Below, piece after piece: positions 49,237-62,813 of a stretch of DNA of 64,000 bases (the stretch's first letter is position 1; the number at the start of each line of letters is the position of its first letter). The notes beneath the pieces are model-generated. The model was not told the origin of the DNA, did not search any database, and saw nothing but the letters and a program-made list of their open reading frames with translations. The position numbers and the translations under genes were made by a program. This DNA comes from a phage: NCBI GenBank assembly GCA_026165385.1, contig GCA_026165385.1_4524.1; one strand, written 5' to 3'.

Positions 49237-49244
49237 TATAAATA
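49237..49244 (+). promoter_or_regulatory. Late promoter TATAAATA for gene 34
   Basis: Exact TATAAATA about 35 nt upstream of the gene 34 ATG. Confidence 0.7.
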
Positions 49245-49278: not shown

Positions 49279-52200
49279 ATGGTTGACATCAAACGTAAGT
49301 TCAGGGCCGAAGACGGTCTTGACGCAGGCGGTGATAAGATAGTTAACGTTGCGCTTGCTGACCGCACAGTTGGCACCGATGGCGTGAACGTTGACTTTTT
49401 GGTGCAAGAAAACACCGTACAGAATTATGACGATACGCGCGCGTATACAAAAGATTTTATTGTTCTTTATGATAATCGTTTTTATCAAGCTTTAAGTGAT
49501 ATTCCAGCTCCGGCAGGCCCTTTCTCTTTGGCTAAATGGAAGGCAACTCGTACAGATGCAGAATGGATTACAGTTCAAGGCGGAGATTTCCAATTATCAG
49601 TAGGTAACTCTATTGCGGTTGATACTTCAGCTGGCACTGATATTAATTTCACTTTGCCTCAAAATCCTTTAGATGGCGATACAGTTATTTTGTCTGATAT
49701 TGGTGGTAGAGTAGGCTATGTAAAAGTTCAAATTACTGCAGAGGCTCAAAGTATTGTAAACTTTAGAGGACAACAGGTTCGTTCAGTTTTAATGACGCAC
49801 CCAAAATCTAAAATGGTCTTCATTTTTAGCAACCGCCTATGGCAAATGTATGTTTCTGATTACGAACGTAATGCAGTCACAGTAACTCCTGCTACGCCGT
49901 ATCAGGCGCAACCTAATGATTTTATCATTCGACGTTTTACATCAGCCGCTCCTATTAATATTACATTGCCTCGTAATGCTAATAATGGCGATATTATTAA
50001 TTTAGTGGATTTAGACAAATTAAACCCATTATATCACACAATTGTCAAAACTTACGATGAAACAACTTCTATACGAGAAGCTGGTGTTCATGTAGCAGAA
50101 GGACGTAATACTGCGGAAGCATTCTTTGTTTATGATTCTGCAAATAGTTTATGGCGTGTTTGGGAAGGTGACCAGAAATCTCGTTTACGTATAGTTCGTA
50201 ATGATACTGATTTACGCCCTAATGAAGAAGTTCTTGTTTTTGGAACTAATAATGATACAATCTCGACGGTAAATCTTACTTTGCCTACAGATATTTTGTC
50301 TGGCGATACTGTTAAAATATCGTTGAATTATATGCGTAAAGGGCAAACTGTAAAAATTAAAGCTGCTGAAGGCGATACAATTGCTAGCAGTATTTCTTTA
50401 TTACAGTTCCCAAAACGTTCGGAGTATCCACCTGATGCACAATGGGTTTCTGTTAGTGAGCTGGAATTTAATGGTGATACTTCGTATGTACCTGTACTTG
50501 AGTTAGCTTATATAGAAGATTATTCATCTGAAACAAAATATTGGGTAGTTCAACAAAACACCGTAACCGTCGAACGAGTCGATGCATCGAGCAATACAAC
50601 TCGAGCTCGTTTAGGTGTTATTGCTCTTGCTTCTCAAGCGCAAGCAAATGTCGATTTAGAAAATGCTCCTGGTAAAGAACTGGCTATTACTCCGGAAACA
50701 TTAGCAAATCGTACAGCAACTGAAACTCGTCGTGGTATTGCTCGTATTGCAACAACTGCACAAGTTAACCAGAATACCGATTTTGCATTCCAAGACGACT
50801 TGATTATTTCTCCTAAGAAATTGAACGAACGTACAGCAACTGAAACCCGTAGAGGTGTTGCTGAAGTTGCAACTCAGGCTGAAACTAATGCTGGCACAGA
50901 TGATACCACTATTATTACTCCTAAGAAATTGGATGCCCGTCAAGGTTCTGAAGTTTTATCTGGTATTGTAAAATACACATCTACGACTGGTACTACAGCT
51001 GCTACTATTCGTGGTAATGCTGGGACTAACGTTTATAACAAAGCCGTAGATAATTTAACTATTTCTCCAAAGGCTCTTGACCAGTATAAAGCTACCCCTA
51101 CTCAGCAGGGTGCAGTAATTCTTGCTATTGAAAGCGAAGTTATCGCTGGCGAATCACAAGCTGGTTGGGCTAATGCTGTAGTGACCCCTGAAACTCTGCA
51201 TAAGAAAACTTCTACTGATGGACGTATTGGTTTAATTGAAATTGCTACGCAAGCAGAAACTAACACTGGAACTGATTATACTAGAGCAGTAACGCCTAAG
51301 ACGTTAAATGATAGGAAAGCTACGGAAGGATTATCTGGCATAGCCGAAATTGCTACGCAAGTTGAATTTGATACTGGAACTGACGATACTCGTATCTCGT
51401 CTCCACTGAAAATTAAAACTCATTTTGATTCTTCTGACCGTACCAGTGTTAATTCTGATTCCGGACTTATTGAAGAAGGAACCTTGTGGAACCATTATAC
51501 TCTTGATATTTCTAAAGCAAATGAAACACAACGTGGTACACTTCGAGTAGCGACCCAGGCAGAATCTAATGCAGGAACTTTAGATGATGTTCTTATTACT
51601 CCTAAAAAGCTTTTAGGGACTAAGTCCACTGAAACATCTGAAGGCGTAATTAAGGTTGCTACTCAGGCTGAAACTGTAACAGGAACTTCTGCTAATACTG
51701 CTGTATCACCTAAGAATTTAAAATGGATTGTTCAATCAGAACCGTCATGGACTGCTACTACGGCAATTCGTGGATTCGTTAAAACTTCATCTGGTTCTAT
51801 TACATTTGTCGGCGACGATACTCAGGGTAATACCCAGGATTTGAATCTTTATGAGAAAAATAGCTATGCGGTGTCGCCATATGAATTAAACCGTGTACTT
51901 GCTAACTACTTACCGTTGAAAGCTAAAGCAGCTGATAGTAATTTGTTAGATGGTCTAGATTCTCTTCAGTTCATCCGTAGAGACATCGACCAGACGGTTA
52001 ATGGTTCTTTAAGTCTTACTAAACAGACCAACCTGAGTGCTCCTTTAGTATCTACAAGCACTGCTTCTTTTGGTTCCGAAGCATCTGTTACTCGTAGATT
52101 AACTCTTAATGACTCTAGCGGTTCCGAAATAGTTTTCACTAAAGGAACCCAATCTCTTAGTAATAAAGAGAATTTCGTTGTTAGAGCATGGGGTAATAGC

Positions 52201-53112
52201 GCTACAGATGGTGCCCGTGATACAGTATTTGAAGCGGGTGACGAAACCGGATACCATTTCTATTCTCAGCGCGCTGCTGATAATAGAGTATCATTTAATA
52301 TTAATGGAACACTTTATTCAACAGGTATTGTTTCTACAAATGGATTAAATGTTACAGGTGTTTCTACCTTTACAGGGCCTATTAGTGCTACAGGCGAAAT
52401 TGTTTCTAGTTCTCCTATTGCATTCAGAGCTATTAACGGTAACTATGGTGTTATGCTTTATAATGCTGGTAACAGTTCTTATATTGCATTAACTAACTCA
52501 GGTGACCAGACCGGGACGTTTAATAACTTACGCCCGATCACGATTAACAATGCCACGGGATTAGTTCGTCTTGACAACGGTGTTCAAATCACAAGTGGTG
52601 CAACGATAACTACCGGTGGGTTAACTGTAAATAACAGGATTATTTCTAACGGCGTTAAAACTGCCACGGTTTATACAGATAAACCAACAGCTTCTACTGT
52701 AGGTTTTTGGTCTATTGACATTAACGATTCTGCTGTATATAGCCAATTCCCTGGATACTGGACGCGTGATAACAAAGGTAACCGTGACCAAGAAATTAAA
52801 TATCCTGGTACTTTGACTCAATTTGGTAATAGCTTAGATTCGCTTTATCAGGATTGGATTTGTTATCCTACAGGTGCAAATGGCGGTAGTATTCGTTATA
52901 CTCGTACCTGGCAGAAAAATAAAGATGCTTGGACTTCATTTGCAATGGTATTTGATAGTGGCAACCCACCTTCACCTAGCGATGTCGGTGCTATCCCATC
53001 TGATAATGCTGTTATTGGAAACCTTACTGTTCGAGACTTCTTACAATTAGGAAATGTGAGAATTGTTCCAGACCCGGTTAACAAAACAGTTAAATTTATA
53101 TGGGTTGAATAA
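49279..53112 (+). CDS. 34: Long tail fibre proximal subunit gp34
   Basis: 1277 aa; matches T4 gp34 (1289 aa) from start through the C-terminal ...VPDPVNKTVKFxWVE. Confidence 0.97.
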   Translation: MVDIKRKFRAEDGLDAGGDKIVNVALADRTVGTDGVNVDFLVQENTVQNYDDTRAYTKDFIVLYDNRFYQALSDIPAPAGPFSLAKWKATRTDAEWITVQGGDFQLSVGNSIAVDTSAGTDINFTLPQNPLDGDTVILSDIGGRVGYVKVQITAEAQSIVNFRGQQVRSVLMTHPKSKMVFIFSNRLWQMYVSDYERNAVTVTPATPYQAQPNDFIIRRFTSAAPINITLPRNANNGDIINLVDLDKLNPLYHTIVKTYDETTSIREAGVHVAEGRNTAEAFFVYDSANSLWRVWEGDQKSRLRIVRNDTDLRPNEEVLVFGTNNDTISTVNLTLPTDILSGDTVKISLNYMRKGQTVKIKAAEGDTIASSISLLQFPKRSEYPPDAQWVSVSELEFNGDTSYVPVLELAYIEDYSSETKYWVVQQNTVTVERVDASSNTTRARLGVIALASQAQANVDLENAPGKELAITPETLANRTATETRRGIARIATTAQVNQNTDFAFQDDLIISPKKLNERTATETRRGVAEVATQAETNAGTDDTTIITPKKLDARQGSEVLSGIVKYTSTTGTTAATIRGNAGTNVYNKAVDNLTISPKALDQYKATPTQQGAVILAIESEVIAGESQAGWANAVVTPETLHKKTSTDGRIGLIEIATQAETNTGTDYTRAVTPKTLNDRKATEGLSGIAEIATQVEFDTGTDDTRISSPLKIKTHFDSSDRTSVNSDSGLIEEGTLWNHYTLDISKANETQRGTLRVATQAESNAGTLDDVLITPKKLLGTKSTETSEGVIKVATQAETVTGTSANTAVSPKNLKWIVQSEPSWTATTAIRGFVKTSSGSITFVGDDTQGNTQDLNLYEKNSYAVSPYELNRVLANYLPLKAKAADSNLLDGLDSLQFIRRDIDQTVNGSLSLTKQTNLSAPLVSTSTASFGSEASVTRRLTLNDSSGSEIVFTKGTQSLSNKENFVVRAWGNSATDGARDTVFEAGDETGYHFYSQRAADNRVSFNINGTLYSTGIVSTNGLNVTGVSTFTGPISATGEIVSSSPIAFRAINGNYGVMLYNAGNSSYIALTNSGDQTGTFNNLRPITINNATGLVRLDNGVQITSGATITTGGLTVNNRIISNGVKTATVYTDKPTASTVGFWSIDINDSAVYSQFPGYWTRDNKGNRDQEIKYPGTLTQFGNSLDSLYQDWICYPTGANGGSIRYTRTWQKNKDAWTSFAMVFDSGNPPSPSDVGAIPSDNAVIGNLTVRDFLQLGNVRIVPDPVNKTVKFIWVE

Positions 53113-53120
53113 GAGGTTAT

Positions 53121-54245
53121 ATGGAAAAATTTATGGCAAGGTTTGGACAGGGATACGTCCAAACGCCGTTTTTATCGGAAAGCAATTCAGTTAGATTTAA
53201 GCTAAGTATAGCGGGTTCATGCCCGCTTTCAACAACTAATCCGTATATTTTGTTCCAAAACGAGCCTTTAGGGTTGCAGTCTTTTGGTATTGGACTAAAT
53301 GTTAGGGTGATAAATCCGGAAAATGGAACTATAGTTGATAGTAAATTATACAATTTTGCGCCTACAAATAATGCAACTTCAGCTGCATTTATTTCGTTTG
53401 TTAATACATACGCGGATAATTTCATTTTCGCATTTATTTCTAATAACAAATTTAATTTGCCACCGGAAATAATTGAATGGTTTAAAGCTGCTGGGAGTTC
53501 AGTTATACCGTCAATTGAAGTTGCTAGTCTTGTTGATATTTCATATTCAGCGTTTTATGTTTCAGGTAAAAATACTATTGCATTAGAACACATAAAATAC
53601 AGTAATAAGAAAACAATTTCTGATTACGCAACTCCATTAGATATTGTATATGACTCTATTGCTGATATAGGTGCTACCGGCTATCCTAGACGTACATATG
53701 AAGCTCTAGAAACGTTTTTATCTCCTGTTGGAGGAACTAACAATGAAATAAAAAGGATGCCTACGTCATCCCTTGTTACTCCTATCGCAAACTATGGATT
53801 AAAGCCTACAGATTTTCTTTATTTGAAATTTCAATTAACGGCTGATGAAGAATTATTAGAGGAAGGAACCACAAGACTTTCAATTCGTTTCTTTAAGTCT
53901 CCATCTAGCTCTCCTATATCATCTAAAGATATAAACTTTGATGGAATTGCCGGGGAGTGGAAGCTATATGAAGAATACGTTGAAATACCAGCTGAAGCTG
54001 ACGGCTTTACAGTATATTGTTACCGTACGGCCTCAGTCGGTCAAGGTGGACTAAGAAATGTTATTTTCACTGAAGTATCATGTAACGGAAGTATAGCAAA
54101 ACCCGCTGAGTTTGGTATAAACGGTATTCGTGTTAATTACATTGATGAATCATTAACCGGTAATGATATAATGGACTTGCCTACTCAGTTATCTAACGAC
54201 ACAGGTAAGGTATTTGGGCAGGAATTTAAAGAGTACACAGAATAA
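53121..54245 (+). CDS. 35: Long tail fibre hinge connector gp35
   Basis: 374 aa (T4 372 aa); position between 34 and 36. Confidence 0.9.
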   Translation: MEKFMARFGQGYVQTPFLSESNSVRFKLSIAGSCPLSTTNPYILFQNEPLGLQSFGIGLNVRVINPENGTIVDSKLYNFAPTNNATSAAFISFVNTYADNFIFAFISNNKFNLPPEIIEWFKAAGSSVIPSIEVASLVDISYSAFYVSGKNTIALEHIKYSNKKTISDYATPLDIVYDSIADIGATGYPRRTYEALETFLSPVGGTNNEIKRMPTSSLVTPIANYGLKPTDFLYLKFQLTADEELLEEGTTRLSIRFFKSPSSSPISSKDINFDGIAGEWKLYEEYVEIPAEADGFTVYCYRTASVGQGGLRNVIFTEVSCNGSIAKPAEFGINGIRVNYIDESLTGNDIMDLPTQLSNDTGKVFGQEFKEYTE

Positions 54246-54246
54246 A

Positions 54247-54262
54247 GGAGACTTCGGTCTCC
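54247..54262 (+). terminator. UUCG-tetraloop terminator downstream of gene 35
   Basis: AGGAGAC-TTCG-GTCTCC followed by TTTT. Confidence 0.7.
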
Positions 54263-54270
54263 TTTTCGCG

Positions 54271-54278
54271 TATAAATA
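54271..54278 (+). promoter_or_regulatory. Late promoter TATAAATA for gene 36
   Basis: Exact TATAAATA about 27 nt upstream of the gene 36 ATG, just after the gene 35 terminator hairpin. Confidence 0.7.
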
Positions 54279-54304: not shown

Positions 54305-54961
54305 ATGGCCGATTTAAAAGCCGGAAGTACAGTTGGTGGTTCCGTCATATGGCATCAAGGCAATTTTCCTTTAATGCCAGCTGGCGACGACATCCTATAT
54401 AAAACATTTAAATTATACACCGAATATAACAAGCCAAAAGCGGCTGATAACGATTTCGTATCTAAAGCAAATGGTGGGACATATCTCAAAAAGGTAATCT
54501 TTAACGAAGGTATTGCAGTCAAAACAGCAGATGACCAAACGAATGGCATTTTTTCTGGCGGTGGTGACGCCGCGACATTCGACCAAACAAACATGGATAT
54601 TGTTTCGTGGTATGGTATTGGGTTTAAATCATCTCAAGGTACAGGTGAAAGAACTGTTGTAATTGATACTCGCACCGGTAATATAAGTTCTAAAGGCGTT
54701 ATTGAAGCATCTCAATTCAGAGCCACAACGTTAGCACCTTTAAATAATTATGACCTTACTCGCAAAGATTATGTTGATAGTCAAATAAATACAGTTAATG
54801 CTAATGCAAACAGTCGTGTACTCCGTTCAGGAGATACGATGACCGGCGCGCTAACCGCCCCAAACTTTTTCTCACAGAATCCTGCATCTCAACCCTCGCA
54901 TGTTCCACGATTTGACCAAATTGTTATTAAGGATTCTGTTCAAGATTTCGGCTATTATTAA
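54305..54961 (+). CDS. 36: Long tail fibre distal connector gp36
   Basis: 218 aa; matches T4 gp36 at both N- and C-termini (MADLKxGST...SVQDFGYY). Confidence 0.95.
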   Translation: MADLKAGSTVGGSVIWHQGNFPLMPAGDDILYKTFKLYTEYNKPKAADNDFVSKANGGTYLKKVIFNEGIAVKTADDQTNGIFSGGGDAATFDQTNMDIVSWYGIGFKSSQGTGERTVVIDTRTGNISSKGVIEASQFRATTLAPLNNYDLTRKDYVDSQINTVNANANSRVLRSGDTMTGALTAPNFFSQNPASQPSHVPRFDQIVIKDSVQDFGYY

Positions 54962-54969
54962 GAGGACTT

Positions 54970-57900
54970 ATGGCTACTTTAAAACAAATACAATTTAAAA
55001 GAAGCAAAACTGCAGGAGCACGTCCTGCCGCTTCAGTATTAGCCGAAGGTGAATTGGCTATAAACTTAAAAGACCGTGTACTTTTTACTAAAGATGACCA
55101 AGGAAATATTATTGATCTGGGTTTTGCTAAAGGCGGTAGTATTGACGGGAATGTTATTCATACAGGTAATTATAACCAAACCGGCGATTATACTTTAAAT
55201 GGCACCTTCACTCAGACAGGTAATTTTAATTTAACTGGTATTGCTCGAGTAACTCGTGATATTATTGCCGCTGGGCAGATTATGACTGAAGGCGGTGAAC
55301 TTATTACAAAAAGTTCAGGTACAGCACATGTTCGTTTTTTCGATGGCAATAGCCGCGAACGTGGAATCATTTATGCCCCGGCTAATGATGGATTAACTAC
55401 ACAAGTACTTAATATCAGGGTTCAAGACTACGCCGCTGGTAGCGAAAGCACTTATGCATTTTCAGGCAATGGACAATTTACTTCACCTGAAGTATCGGCA
55501 TGGAAATCTATGTCAACTCCTCAGATTTTGACTGACAAAGTCATTACAGACGGGAAGAAGGCTGGTGATTATGACATCTATTCATTAGCAAATAATAATT
55601 CTAACACAGATAAAAATAATTTACGTGTCGTACGTACCGACCCGGCGGCCGCAATGCTCCATGAAATTTGTGAAAACAACGGCATCAGTTGGTATTCTGG
55701 TTCAACCCCTACTGATTATATGTTATCTTTTGCTTATTCCGGCGGTTTTCAAGCAGGCCATTCGATTGCAGTAGGTATGGAATCAGGGCCTATGACATAT
55801 TCAACCTTAGGTAAAGGTTCTATTGTTCTTGGGGATAATGATACTGGATTTAAATGGCATCAAGACGGATATTATTTCAGTGTTAATAATGGAACAAAAA
55901 CGTTTTTATTTGGTCCTAGCGAAACAACTAGCCTAAGAAAATTTGTAGCCGGATATTCTACTAATGGAACCGATTTAACTACTCCTCCAACTGAAAACTA
56001 TGCTCTTGCTACTGTTGTGACATATCACGATAATAACGCGTTTGGAGATGGTCAGACTCTTTTGGGATATTATCAAGGCGGTAATTATCATCACTATTTC
56101 CGTGGTAAGGGTACCACAAACATTAATACTCACGGCGGTTTGTTGGTTACTCCTGGTAATATTGATGTTATCGGCGGTTCTGTTAATATAGATGGTAGAA
56201 ATAATTCTTCTACACTAATGTTTAGAGGCAACACAACAGGATACAGCTCGGTTGATAATATGGATATTAAAGTTTGGGGTAATACGTTTGTTGATCCAAG
56301 CGGAGGTATCCGTAAAAACATTATGGAAATTTCTGATGCAACTAGCTGGATGAGCTATATTCAAAGACTTACTACTGGCGAAGTAGAAATGAACGTTAAT
56401 GGTTCATTTGAATCATCTGGTGTTACTGCTGGAGATAGAGGAGTTCACACAACAGGTGAAATTTCATCTGGAGCAGTGAATGCTCTTCGTATTTGGAACG
56501 CAGATTATGGAGCCATTTTTAGGCGTTCAGAAGGTAGTCTTCATATTATTCCTACTGCTTATGGCGAAGGCAAAGATGGCGATATTGGTCCACTTCGCCC
56601 GTTTAGTATGGCTTTAGATACTGGTAAAGTTACTATTCCAGATTTACAATCAAGTTACAATACGTTCGCAGCAAACGGCTATATTAAATTTGTTGGTCAT
56701 GGCGCTGGCGCAGGTGGATATGATATTCAATATGCCCAAGCGGCTCCTATTTTCCAGGAAATTGATGATGATGCTGTAAGCAAATATTATCCTATTGTTA
56801 AACAGAAGTTTTTAAATGGTAAAGCCGTTTGGTCTTTAGGTACTGAAATTAATTCAGGTACATTTGTTTTACACCATATCAAAGAAGATGGATCACAAGG
56901 ACATACATCTCGTTTTAATCAAGACGGCACGGTTAATTTCCCTGATAATGTTCAGGTTGGTGGTGGTGAAGCTACTATTGCTCGCAACGGTAACATCTGG
57001 TCTGATATCTGGAAATCGTTTACTTCAGCAGGAGACACCACAAATATTCGCGATGCAATAGCCACCCGTGTTTCTAAAGAAGGCGACACGATGACCGGCA
57101 CTCTTTGGATTAATAAAGATGCTGCTGGAATAGTTCTTAATCCTCCTTTGGCCAGTGATTCATCATTTATTCGTTCCGATACGGCCGGGGTCAATAATTG
57201 GTATATTGGTAAAGGCGGTGCCGACAATGGTCTAGGTTTTTACAGTTATGTTACACAAGGCGGTATATATATAACAAATAACGGAGAAATATCACTTTCT
57301 CCTCAAGGCCAAGGAACATTTAATTTTAATAGAGACCGCCTCCATATAAACGGTACACAATGGACCGCACACCAGGGAGGTGGTTGGGGAAATCAATGGA
57401 ATCAAGAAGCACCGGTATTTGTAGATTTTGGTAATGTTGGTAATGATAGTTATTATCCTATTATTAAAGGAAAATCCGGTATTACTAATGAAGGATACAT
57501 ATCTGGTGTAGATTTTGGTATGCGACGCATTACTAATACATGGGCACAAGGTATTATTCGTGTGGGTAATCAGGAAAACGGTTACGACCCACAAGCTGTA
57601 TATGAATTCCATCATAACGGTACTTTTTATGCTCCAAGCTTACTTAAGAGCAGTAGAGTATCAGCTGGTGGTGGTGACCCTGCATGGGGCGGGCCGTGTA
57701 TTGTACTTGGAGATAACGATACCGGTTTGCTTTGGGAAAACGATGGTATTTTCAACGCATATGCAAACGGCCAAGGTGTGTTTAGTTTTAGACCTGGTTT
57801 AGCTCAGACATTCGGTGATGTTAACTTCCACTGTAATGCAGGTATGTATGTTCGTGATAACATTGATGTTAACGACGTTTATATTCGTTCTGATATTCGT

Positions 57901-58209
57901 TGTAAGTCGGAAATTAAGCTTATTAAGAACGCTCAAGAGAAATCTAAACTATTGGGCGGTTATACTTATCTGCTTAAAAACTCTGTTACAGACGAAGTTA
58001 AACCGTCTGCAGGTTTGATTGCTCAGGAAGTTCAAGAAGTATTGCCTGAACTTGTTTCTGAAGATAAAGAGACCGGCTTACTTCGTTTAAACTATAACGG
58101 TATTATCGGTTTAAATACCGCTACTATCAACGAGCATACTGACGAAATCAAGGAATTGAAATCTGAAATTGCTGAATTGAAAGCATTAATTAAATCATTG
58201 ATAAAATAA
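54970..58209 (+). CDS. 37: Long tail fibre distal subunit gp37 with C-terminal intramolecular-chaperone-like domain
   Basis: 1079 aa; N-terminus matches T4 gp37 (MATLKQIQFKRSKTAGARPAASVLAEGELAINLKD); C-terminal ~105 aa has an SDIRCKSE motif and coiled-coil end typical of S74-type chaperone domains. Confidence 0.92.
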   Translation: MATLKQIQFKRSKTAGARPAASVLAEGELAINLKDRVLFTKDDQGNIIDLGFAKGGSIDGNVIHTGNYNQTGDYTLNGTFTQTGNFNLTGIARVTRDIIAAGQIMTEGGELITKSSGTAHVRFFDGNSRERGIIYAPANDGLTTQVLNIRVQDYAAGSESTYAFSGNGQFTSPEVSAWKSMSTPQILTDKVITDGKKAGDYDIYSLANNNSNTDKNNLRVVRTDPAAAMLHEICENNGISWYSGSTPTDYMLSFAYSGGFQAGHSIAVGMESGPMTYSTLGKGSIVLGDNDTGFKWHQDGYYFSVNNGTKTFLFGPSETTSLRKFVAGYSTNGTDLTTPPTENYALATVVTYHDNNAFGDGQTLLGYYQGGNYHHYFRGKGTTNINTHGGLLVTPGNIDVIGGSVNIDGRNNSSTLMFRGNTTGYSSVDNMDIKVWGNTFVDPSGGIRKNIMEISDATSWMSYIQRLTTGEVEMNVNGSFESSGVTAGDRGVHTTGEISSGAVNALRIWNADYGAIFRRSEGSLHIIPTAYGEGKDGDIGPLRPFSMALDTGKVTIPDLQSSYNTFAANGYIKFVGHGAGAGGYDIQYAQAAPIFQEIDDDAVSKYYPIVKQKFLNGKAVWSLGTEINSGTFVLHHIKEDGSQGHTSRFNQDGTVNFPDNVQVGGGEATIARNGNIWSDIWKSFTSAGDTTNIRDAIATRVSKEGDTMTGTLWINKDAAGIVLNPPLASDSSFIRSDTAGVNNWYIGKGGADNGLGFYSYVTQGGIYITNNGEISLSPQGQGTFNFNRDRLHINGTQWTAHQGGGWGNQWNQEAPVFVDFGNVGNDSYYPIIKGKSGITNEGYISGVDFGMRRITNTWAQGIIRVGNQENGYDPQAVYEFHHNGTFYAPSLLKSSRVSAGGGDPAWGGPCIVLGDNDTGLLWENDGIFNAYANGQGVFSFRPGLAQTFGDVNFHCNAGMYVRDNIDVNDVYIRSDIRCKSEIKLIKNAQEKSKLLGGYTYLLKNSVTDEVKPSAGLIAQEVQEVLPELVSEDKETGLLRLNYNGIIGLNTATINEHTDEIKELKSEIAELKALIKSLIK

Positions 58210-58214
58210 TAAAA

Positions 58215-58228
58215 GGGCCTTCGGGCCC
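58215..58228 (+). terminator. UUCG-tetraloop hairpin between genes 37 and 38
   Basis: GGGCC-TTCG-GGCCC right after the gene 37 stop and before the gene 38 Shine-Dalgarno; no U-tract. Confidence 0.5.
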
Positions 58229-58239
58229 TGGAGGTTTAT

Positions 58240-59019
58240 ATGGCAGTAGTAGGAATCCCTGGTTGGATTGGGACCTCAGCCGTTGCTGAAACAGGTCAAA
58301 GATGGATGACGGCTGCTTCAAGGGAACTTCGTTTAGGAAACCCTTCATGGATGTCCCAATTCGCGGGCCGTTCAAGAGAAATAATTCATACACTTGGTGC
58401 AGACCATAACTTTAACGGACAATGGTTCCGTGACCGTTGCTTTGAAGCTGGCGGCGCTCCTATAGTGTTTAATATCACCGGAAATTTGGTATCATATAGT
58501 AAAGATGTTCCATTATTCTTTATGTATGGCGATACGCCAAATGAATATGTTACTTTGAATATTCATGGTGGGGTTCATATGTGGGGACGAGGTGGTAACG
58601 GTACTGTAAACGGAAACCCAGGCACAAATGGCGGTGATGTAATCCAAAATGATATCGGCGGAAGACTTCGTATTTGGAACTATGGCGTTATTGCATCAGG
58701 CGGTGGTGGTGGTGGTGCAGTGTCATTACAGAATAGCTGGGCGCCAAATGCTACAGCAGGTGGCGGTGGCGGCAGACCATTTGGCCTCGGCGGAGGCGGC
58801 GTTAATTGGCCGGGTGGTAATGCTAGTTATGACGCCCCGGGAGGCGCCGGTTACACTTCCCAATTCGGCGGTGGTAATGGTGGTGATGCTGGAGGTCGGG
58901 GCGGAGATGGATGGGGTAATCACTTATCTAGATCCGGCGGTGGTGCTCCTGGCAGAGCAGTATTCGGAAGTTCACCGTCATGGGGTGCTACAGGCACAAT
59001 CTACGGCTCCTGGATTTAA
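58240..59019 (+). CDS. 38: Tail fibre adhesin gp38 (T2-type, glycine-rich motifs)
   Basis: 259 aa; several poly-glycine motifs ([39 protein letters not shown]) separated by short variable segments. Confidence 0.85.
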
Positions 59020-59037
59020 ACGATAATACCTCTCAAT

Positions 59038-59045
59038 TATAAATA
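59038..59045 (+). promoter_or_regulatory. Late promoter TATAAATA for holin gene t
   Basis: Exact TATAAATA about 20 nt upstream of the t ATG at 59065. Confidence 0.65.
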
Positions 59046-59064
59046 TTGATAAATGGGAGGTAAT

Positions 59065-59724
59065 ATGGCAGCACCAAAAGTATCATTTTCGCCTAGTGAT
59101 ATTTTATTTGGGTTGCTAGACCGCATTTTCAAAGATAACGCCTCTGGAAATATTCTTATTTCAAGAGTTGCTGTTGTAGTTCTTTTGTTCCTAATGGCAC
59201 TAATATGGTACAAAGGGAATATTTTTATGGATTATTACGTGAGGTCGAAATATGATACTTACACAGAAGTAATTCAAAAAGAAAGAAATACACGATTTGA
59301 ATCTGCGGCTTTAGAACAACTACAAATAGTCCACGTCACATCAAGGGCGGATTTTAGTTCGGTGTATTCTTTCAGACCTAAAAATCTAAATTATTTCGTC
59401 GACCTTATTGCGTATGAAGGTAAGTTACCTAGCACAGTAACTGAAAAATCTATGGGAGGATTTCCTGTTGATAAAACGACAGCAGAATATTCGGTCCATT
59501 TAAGTGGACTTCACTTTACTTCTAAAACAGATTTTGCTTTCTTACCTACAAAATCAAAAACTCCGGAACTGGCGTATATGTATAGTTGTCCTTACTTCAA
59601 TTTGGATAACATATATGCTGGAACTGTTTCTATGTATTGGTATAAGGGGTCGGATGTGTTAAATGAAGAACGCTTGGCTGCAATATGCAACCAAGCAGCA
59701 AGGATATTAGGGCGGGCTAAATAA
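59065..59724 (+). CDS. t: Holin T
   Basis: Start at MAAPKVSFSPSDILFG with GGGAGG Shine-Dalgarno; matches T4 holin T (218 aa); one N-terminal transmembrane segment. Confidence 0.95.
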   Translation: MAAPKVSFSPSDILFGLLDRIFKDNASGNILISRVAVVVLLFLMALIWYKGNIFMDYYVRSKYDTYTEVIQKERNTRFESAALEQLQIVHVTSRADFSSVYSFRPKNLNYFVDLIAYEGKLPSTVTEKSMGGFPVDKTTAEYSVHLSGLHFTSKTDFAFLPTKSKTPELAYMYSCPYFNLDNIYAGTVSMYWYKGSDVLNEERLAAICNQAARILGRAK

Positions 59725-62559: not shown

Positions 62560-62597
62560 TTTATTTTGGGCTCTTTTTCCAAAAGCCCTGGTAAAAT

Positions 62598-62813
62598 TTA
62601 CAAACTCATTTCTTTAATAAGGTCAATAAGTTTTGCCTTTTTAGAACGAAGCTTTTCTAAACGATGTCCATTTGAACCGCGAACCACTAAAGAATTGATT
62701 TCAACTTCTAAGAAATTTAATTCTTCAACAAGTGCTTTACGGGGAGCATTCATACCAGGTTTAACTTTACCGAAACGAGTAGTTGTGTTTTGGGTTAATT
62801 TCATTTTAGACAT
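62598..62813 (-). CDS. Hypothetical basic protein (52.1 position)
   Basis: 71 aa ORF; shares promoter, leader and first three codons (MSK) with motA through a duplicated cassette. Confidence 0.5.
   Translation of the reverse strand: MSKMKLTQNTTTRFGKVKPGMNAPRKALVEELNFLEVEINSLVVRGSNGHRLEKLRSKKAKLIDLIKEMSL

Follow-up and report, generated by a model that had tools for sequence, protein, structure and literature searches.

In phage T2, the distal subunit of the long tail fibre, gp37, undergoes cleavage, after which the adhesin gp38 caps it (PMC3157838). PMC3157838 and PMC6851490 cite Drexler, Riede and Henning (1986) for the processing of T2 gp37 and Riede et al. (1987) for T2 gp38 as an adhesin. 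In S16, whose fibre tip has been solved (6F45; Dunne et al. 2018, according to PMC6851490), three tryptophan prongs of gp38 dock on the tip of the gp37 trimer, which is exposed by removal of the chaperone (PMC6851490), and gp37 is cut at DLNVS^SDRRIKK (PMC7917993). The gp38 of PP01 (9V85; PMC12892980) binds OmpC of O157. T4 differs in that its gp37 bears its own receptor-binding tip and its gp38 is an unrelated assembly factor of 183 amino acids (AA). T2 gp37 processing, the adhesin role of gp38, the gp37-gp38 structure (2018), a second gp38 structure and the receptor of the gp38 allele treated here are known already. The locus compared with these systems comprises genes 37 and 38 of a phage DNA stretch of 64,000 nucleotides (NCBI GenBank assembly GCA_026165385.1, contig GCA_026165385.1_4524.1), which is called the window at its full length. 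Very probably, it represents a T2-type receptor module of an RB69-like phage (Mosigvirus), in which an S74-type chaperone would cleave itself off gp37 and gp38 would cap the tip, with OmpF as the most probable receptor. A preliminary description, made from the sequence, had proposed a T2-type receptor-recognition module for positions 57889 to 59019; the former is the first base of Ser974 of gp37, and with the latter the stop codon of gene 38 ends. The exact proteins are found at the NCBI as EKD0950821.1 (‘tail fiber domain-containing protein’) and EKD0950822.1 (‘receptor-recognizing protein’). Both lie on a contig of 70,436 bp from an assembly labelled E. coli, which suggests that the window is the contig of a lytic phage contained in the assembly of a bacterial isolate.

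The end of gp37 from SDIRCKSEIKL onwards had been associated with S74-type intramolecular chaperone domains ending in a coiled coil. This segment starts at AA 974, leaving 106 AA to the C-terminus (about 105 had been stated), and a search with hidden Markov models of Pfam assigned AA 974-1029 to Peptidase_S74 (PF13884, ‘chaperone of endosialidase’) with 51.5 bits and an E-value of 1.3e-13 on the fragment, covering model positions 1-57 of 58. The Pfam cut-offs were 22 bits for Peptidase_S74 and 25 bits each for GP38 and Gp38_N; the scores for S74 and GP38 are far beyond chance. In PHROGs, gp37 belongs to phrog_1699 (‘long tail fiber protein distal subunit’, 1309 bits), whereas a scan of gp37 and gp38 against NCBIfam returned no family. 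The domain forms the extreme C-terminus, where a C-terminal intramolecular chaperone domain is expected, and the coiled coil could be confirmed: the last 27 AA form a clean heptad repeat with I, I, I, I in the ‘a’ and H, L, L, L in the ‘d’ positions.

The S-D-x-R-x-K motif (S974-D-I-R-C-K979) was present in all 12 aligned T-even gp37s, with Arg and Lys invariant and Ser and Asp found in every row covering them (10-12 sequences). The spacing between Ser and Lys is that of the S74 family, and in alignment the motif corresponds to SDERHK in 3GUD and to SDRRIK in 6F45_A. The gp37 C-terminus matched S16 gp37 (6F45_A) with an E-value of 3e-30 over 169 AA. A profile was built from the chaperone domains of ten T-even phages and searched against solved structures, which gave S16 gp37 (6F45_A, 6e-45), the self-cleaving domain of MYRF (myelin regulatory factor; 7DC3, 1e-9), a tail fibre (8JOV, 4e-7) and, from the GA-1 neck appendage, the released chaperone 3GUD (2e-3), whose chain starts at the homologous Ser. 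With the endosialidase-type chaperones (PF13884/MEROPS S74; 3GUD; MYRF 7DC3), the domain shares S-D-x-R-x-K, a central G-[LIV]-I-A-Q-E and a C-terminal helical coiled coil. Here, however, the chaperone follows the β-helix of a tail fibre, and neither a tailspike enzyme nor a transcription factor, and its release would also unmask a docking site for a second protein, gp38.

Cleavage after the conserved Ser, as suggested in the preliminary description, did not hold. Because S16 gp37 is cut N-terminal to the Ser of SDRRIKK and 3GUD begins at the homologous Ser, the scissile bond is predicted N-terminal to Ser974, i.e., R973^S974 (DVYIR^SDIRCK). For the fPS phages, the predicted cut is DVYIR^SDGRLKI (PMC7917993), compared to DVYIR^SDIRCKS here; S16 has Ser instead of Arg directly ahead of the cut. 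By analogy to S16 and T2/T6 (PMC7917993, PMC3157838), the chaperone would be released by autoproteolysis. Cys978 (57901-57903), between Arg and Lys of the motif, is shared by the window, TH12, Shf125875 and AlbertHofmann; the other eight sequences have Leu, Val or Ile.

Gene 38 had been described as encoding a 259-AA protein with poly-glycine motifs, which agrees with the translation. Glycine accounts for 25% of gp38 overall, and for 35% of AA 110-259 versus 11% of AA 1-109, with runs of GGGGGG (154-159), GGGGG (174-178), GGGG (184-187) and GGG (210-212 and 233-235), besides many GG pairs. Since gp38 is glycine-rich, the G+C content shows a local peak of 0.52 (vs. ~0.38). Pfam GP38 matched with 279.1 bits over model positions 1-218 of 218 and Gp38_N with 74.2 bits over positions 1-40 of 40, and the PHROGs assignment was phrog_2056 (‘tail fiber protein; host specificity’, 366 bits). 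Among solved structures, the receptor-binding domain of PP01 gp38 (9V85, E-value 7e-73) and, over the full length, S16 gp38 (6F45_D, E-value 3.5e-49) were matched. The resemblance to T2/T6-type adhesins was substantiated by end-to-end alignment with T2, T6, PP01, S16 and RB69, in which the glycine motifs are conserved and the loops variable. In the alignment of 12 phages, the Gly columns show no variation, and the loops change from one receptor group to another; W9, W22 and W37 are invariant in all 12 phages, including S16.

S16 shares with the window the gene order 36-37-38-t and an S74-type chaperone on gp37, and its gp38 is 50% identical over the full length, with the three docking Trp, the β-helix and ten glycine-rich motifs. 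It differs in genus (Gelderlandvirus vs. Mosigvirus), in the length of the gp37 shaft (749 AA vs. 1079 AA here) and in all five distal loops. PP01 gp38 is 66% identical overall and 92% identical in AA 47-109, and has the same layout of a β-helix plus a polyglycine (PGII) sandwich, but only 53% identity is found in AA 110-259 and the loops are different. Judging from the 66% and 50% identity to proteins of two crystal structures, gp38 would adopt the PGII-sandwich fold; the authors of the CASP13 contribution considered the polyglycine domain of gp38 hard to predict (PMC6851490). Loops A to E were mapped from the PP01 crystal-structure definitions (PMC12892980) via the gp38 alignment (A1). The scheme of Trojet divides gp38 into five glycine-rich motifs (GRM) and four hypervariable segments (HVS), while the crystal structures have ten PGII helices and five distal loops. 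The earlier assumption that the variable segments between the glycine runs are the likely receptor-contact loops would apply to the five distal loops only, these being the proposed contact sites in the S16 and PP01 structures (PMC6851490, PMC12892980).

As a control, T2 gp37 and gp38 were searched in the same way and gave a Pfam pattern identical to that of the window. T4 gp37 contains Collar and Phage_fiber domains and no S74 domain, while the window gp37 is without Collar and Phage_fiber in Pfam. T4 gp38 (183 AA) did not match Pfam GP38 or Gp38_N, and the best BLASTP alignment between it and the window gp38 has an E-value of 0.96 over 14 AA, in line with the earlier statement that the two proteins are unlike. 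The locus is therefore of the T2 type and not of the T4 type, since the T2 control shares the Pfam pattern and T4 gp37 and gp38 do not. With T4, the window has in common the locus, the conserved N-terminus of gp37 and a UUCG hairpin between genes 37 and 38. With T2, it shares the S74 domain at the gp37 C-terminus as well as Gp38_N and GP38 in gp38; T2 differs in the length of gp37 (1341 AA), in gp38 (52% identical), in the loops and in the receptor (FadL/OmpF). Gene 38 directly follows, on the 3’ side, a gp37 gene with a chaperone domain of the cleavable type, which is the arrangement of an adhesin locus, and the gene order 36-37-38-t is common to T2, T6, PP01, S16 and RB69. Several GenBank relatives label the T2-type gp38 ‘long tail fiber assembly chaperone’, ‘assembly catalyst’ or ‘distal long tail fiber assembly catalyst’. 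The naming goes back to the unrelated T4 gp38, as the note in the RB69 record itself says, and is corrected by the T2-type reading. In record MZ501056, the note for gp34 reads ‘Gp37’.

Taken by homology, the fibre tip would be assembled as follows. The protein gp37 would be synthesised as a 116-kDa precursor, in which the 106-AA chaperone would drive trimerisation and folding of the β-helical fibre tip. The Ser974/Lys979 dyad would then cut R973-S974, whereby the chaperone removes itself. A mature gp37 of 104.7 kDa ending in ...DVYIR would be left, whose C-terminal β-strand is the presumed docking tip for gp38. One gp38 monomer would cap the exposed trimer tip (3:1 gp37:gp38) via its N-terminal domain with Trp9, Trp22 and Trp37, and the five distal loops of the PGII sandwich would bind the outer-membrane receptor, most probably OmpF, with a further dependence on the lipopolysaccharide (LPS) core. 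The examples of S16, T2 and PP01, together with the near-identical alleles, suggest that the gp38 monomer is present on the gp37 trimer in virions and fixes receptor specificity. The window would accordingly be annotated as carrying a T2-type fibre tip, so that gp38 is expected to be the main determinant of host range, OmpF being the predicted receptor.

For the receptor prediction, gp38 was searched against phage genomes using tblastn and 804 records with a match were obtained. The best matches (99.2-99.6% identical) were TH12, AlbertHofmann, Shf125875, PECP20 and CAU_ECP01. In the glycine-rich part, AA 110-259, identity is 100% to TH12 and to FL31 (receptor OmpF, weak, with a minor TolC effect), 99.3% each to AlbertHofmann (OmpF), RB69 (OmpF, FhuA and LPS core) and fPS-2 (OmpF and LPS), and 97.3% to FL33 (OmpF, minor TolC effect). 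It falls to about 51-53% for PP01 (OmpC), T2 (FadL/OmpF) and T6 (Tsx). The OmpF assignments come from four studies: dependence on ompF, including complementation, was reported for AlbertHofmann (Bas47; PMC8594841); RB69 and RB51 require OmpF, FhuA and the full LPS core (PMC3157838); fPS-2 and fPS-90 require OmpF and LPS (PMC7917993); and FL31, FL33 and FL34 were assigned to OmpF with a minor effect of TolC (PMC12032242). Across this OmpF group (RB69, AlbertHofmann/Bas47, FL31/FL33 and fPS-2/fPS-90), AA 110-259 are shared at 97-100% identity and the five distal loops are identical throughout, but strongly unlike the loops of PP01, T6 and T2. Differences are concentrated elsewhere: AA 1-46 are only 50-78% identical to those of RB69, FL31, fPS-2 and FL33, and the N-terminal docking domain accounts for nearly all of the 8-10% by which the whole protein departs from RB69 and FL31. 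Because its glycine-rich domain is near-identical to those of alleles with experimentally determined OmpF dependence, OmpF is likely the primary receptor of this gp38 allele. This prediction is of use when the host range of the phage is to be predicted or engineered.

Some caveats apply to this interpretation, although nothing in the window sequence itself runs counter to it. The first concerns FL31, which has an identical glycine-rich domain and loses only about one log of plating upon deletion of ompF (PMC12032242); OmpF dependence may hence be partial and vary with the phage background. Furthermore, several near-identical gp38 belong to phages isolated on O157:H7, Shigella and Yersinia, and the porin alleles of these hosts differ. 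A caveat for cleavage is Cys978, which lies inside the motif at a position occupied by L, V or I in other lineages. The first point bears on the alternative that the module functions as described with a primary receptor other than OmpF, e.g., OmpC, Tsx, OmpA, FadL or LPS alone. In addition to the one-log drop of FL31, RB69 needs FhuA and the LPS core besides OmpF, and changes of single residues can switch receptors, as known for SV76 compared to T2 and PST compared to T6 (PMC3157838). Yet, in four independent studies alleles at least 97% identical in AA 110-259 were all OmpF-dependent, and the distal loops, identical within this group, have little in common with those of PP01, T6 and T2, which makes another primary receptor unlikely, though still to be reckoned with.

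The unusual Cys would fit an S74-like domain that is retained without cleaving, or that is removed by another protease, with gp38 binding elsewhere. This we consider very improbable: the Ser and Lys dyad is conserved with the exact spacing of the family, the fPS phages, with a cut predicted at that very bond (PMC7917993), have an identical DVYIR strand, cleavage is documented for S16 (PMC7917993), and T2 gp37 carries the equivalent domain. Even less credible is a gp38 that serves, as in T4, exclusively as an assembly chaperone or catalyst and is absent from the virion, so that gp37 itself binds the receptor. The assembly labels of the GenBank relatives speak in its favour, but they were inherited from T4, whose gp38 is dissimilar and devoid of Pfam GP38. 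Moreover, the window gp38 is 66% identical to PP01 gp38, the receptor-binding domain of which has a crystal structure (9V85), and the window gp37 is without the Collar and Phage_fiber domains that T4 gp37 has in its receptor-binding region.

The window has a Mosigvirus backbone, the nearest relative of which is ChristianSchoenbein (99.1% and 97.4% identity in the first 50 kb). As far as nt 56965 of the fibre locus, the window is 98.2% identical to ChristianSchoenbein; the match then breaks off for the remainder of gene 37 and returns at gene 38. On the protein level, AA 1-520 of gp37 are ChristianSchoenbein-like (98-100%) and AA 521-640 less so (85-92%), whereas AA 681-1079 are 15-40% identical to ChristianSchoenbein versus 92-100% to TH12. 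For gp38, ten differences from ChristianSchoenbein fall within AA 6-36 and one thereafter (G72S). The mosaic segment at ~56890-58350 (gp37 AA 640-1079 and gp38 AA 1-36) is TH12/Shf125875-like, i.e., of the Mosigvirus utam type. The swapped unit thus consists of the distal third of gp37 (distal shaft and tip), the chaperone and the gp38 docking domain (the first ~36 AA), while the receptor-binding part of gp38 is unchanged compared to ChristianSchoenbein. Among the 12 phages, three chaperone types co-vary with three N-terminal types of gp38, and this co-variation includes the gp37 tip. Tentatively, gp37 tip, chaperone and docking domain might form a co-adapted unit recombining apart from receptor specificity, with a breakpoint at gp38 AA 37-~47, in a conserved stretch directly behind the docking domain, but we regard this as rather doubtful. 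The two-domain modularity of gp38 was described by Trojet et al. (2011), and the pattern of cassette exchange is at most a sharper statement of it.

The coordinates of all features are listed in Table 1. Genes 34-35-36-37-38-t form the standard block of T-even late genes on the plus strand, followed 3’ of holin gene t by early genes on the minus strand (asiA, open reading frames (ORFs) of the arn region, motA and gene 52). Genes 37 and 38 are separated by 30 nt.

Table 1. Features of the fibre locus and its surroundings, with positions in the window.
Feature	Position	Strand	Basis
Gene 34	49279-53112	+	ORF table
Gene 35	53121-54245	+	ORF table
T4-type late promoter motif TATAAATA upstream of gene 36	54271-54278	+	motif scan
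Gene 36	54305-54961	+	ORF table
Gene 37, long tail fibre distal subunit precursor, 1079 AA, 116.4 kDa	54970-58209	+	ORF table, Pfam, PHROGs
Predicted mature gp37, AA 1-973, 104.7 kDa, ends ...NDVYIR	54970-57888	+	homology to 6F45_A; DVYIR motif
C-terminal intramolecular chaperone domain, AA 974-1079, 106 AA, 11.75 kDa, self-release predicted	57889-58206	+	Pfam, profile
Peptidase_S74 match, gp37 AA 974-1029	57889-58056	+	Pfam
Ser974, predicted catalytic	57889-57891	+	family motif
Lys979, predicted catalytic	57904-57906	+	family motif
Heptad-repeat (coiled-coil) tail of the chaperone domain, AA 1053-1079, INEHTDEIKELKSEIAELKALIKSLIK	58126-58206	+	a/d pattern
Intercistronic hairpin A-GGGCC-UUCG-GGCCC-U, C(UUCG)G-type	58214-58229	+	fold -12.3 kcal/mol
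Gene 38, T2-type tail-fibre tip adhesin, 259 AA, 26.3 kDa	58240-59019	+	ORF table, Pfam, PHROGs, PDB matches
gp38 N-terminal attachment domain, AA 1-42	58240-58365	+	Pfam Gp38_N
Polyglycine (PGII) sandwich region, AA 116-238, ten glycine-rich motifs flanking five distal loops	58585-58953	+	
Loop A, AA 122-127, TVNGNP	58603-58620	+	transfer from PP01 structure
Loop B, AA 163-172	58726-58755	+	transfer from PP01 structure
Loop C, AA 185-190, GGGVNW	58792-58809	+	transfer from PP01 structure
Loop D, AA 205-209, YTSQF	58852-58866	+	transfer from PP01 structure
Loop E, AA 222-231	58903-58932	+	transfer from PP01 structure
Late promoter motif TATAAATA for holin gene t; 3’ limit of the 36-37-38 unit	59038-59045	+	motif scan
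Holin gene t	ORF 59053-59724; likelier start 59065	+	ORF table
Small basic ORF, 71 AA, MSKMKLTQNTTTRFGKVKPG..., hypothetical in relatives, carried by the segment between motA and gene 52	62598-62813	-	

The late promoter motif TATAAATA was found 19 times in the window, compared to 7.3 expected occurrences. In the fibre region, it is present only at 49237, 54271 and 59038, i.e., before genes 34, 36 and t, and no match was found between 54279 and 59037. Genes 36, 37 and 38 are thus probably transcribed as one late mRNA, since the only motif before them precedes gene 36. The fPS-2 record has a late promoter annotated at the position equivalent to 59038. A scan for sigma-70 promoters gave no excess over shuffled sequences (22 vs. 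19.6). Scans for tRNAs and Rfam families over the whole window (1-64000) detected no tRNA genes and no family at its gathering score, and hence no group I introns.

For holin gene t, two starts were compared. The mechanically determined ORF begins at ATG 59053 (223 AA), 7 nt downstream of the end of TATAAATA at 59045. A Shine-Dalgarno sequence GGGAGG (59055-59060) precedes the second ATG at 59065 (219 AA, MAAPKVSF...), and the 219-AA form appears more plausible than the one starting at 59053. In database relatives, the gene is annotated both with 660 nt and with 672 nt. Further ORFs in or beside gene 38 (58649-59026, plus strand; 58726-58923 and 58190-58393, both minus strand) are taken as by-products of a sequence rich in Gly codons. 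ChristianSchoenbein, RB69 and FL31 lack a segment of ~236 bp between motA and gene 52 (62569-62804), which AlbertHofmann, TH12 and Shf125875 possess.

The intercistronic hairpin is situated between the stop codon of gene 37 and the ribosome-binding site of gene 38 (GGAGG, 58230-58234). A hairpin with another stem sequence exists at the equivalent place in RB69, PP01, T2, T6, fPS-2, S16, ChristianSchoenbein and T4. As the stems differ among these phages, the structure is conserved and not the sequence. The comparison was based on folding each sequence separately, because loops of 3 versus 4 nt shift the stems out of register in the alignment of this region (A3). In its 56-nt context, the hairpin folds no better than shuffled sequences (z = -1.04); its support comes from the stem being kept across phages despite differing stem sequences. 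A role specific to adhesin-type loci, e.g., in setting a gp37:gp38 ratio of 3:1, was considered and rejected, because T4, with its unrelated gp38, has the same UUCG hairpin there. Work by Tuerk and colleagues from 1988 reportedly described UUCG hairpins in intercistronic regions of T4. On the minus strand, the hairpin is followed by TTTATTATTT and scores terminator-like, so that it might stop antisense early transcription. A second hairpin with 9 bp (AAAGGAGACCGAAGTCTCCTTT) and a GAAG loop (TTCG on the plus strand) was observed on the minus strand between genes 35 and 36 (54244-54265). It also scores terminator-like and lies just upstream of the gene 36 late promoter; in the fPS-2 record, a terminator is annotated between genes 35 and 36.

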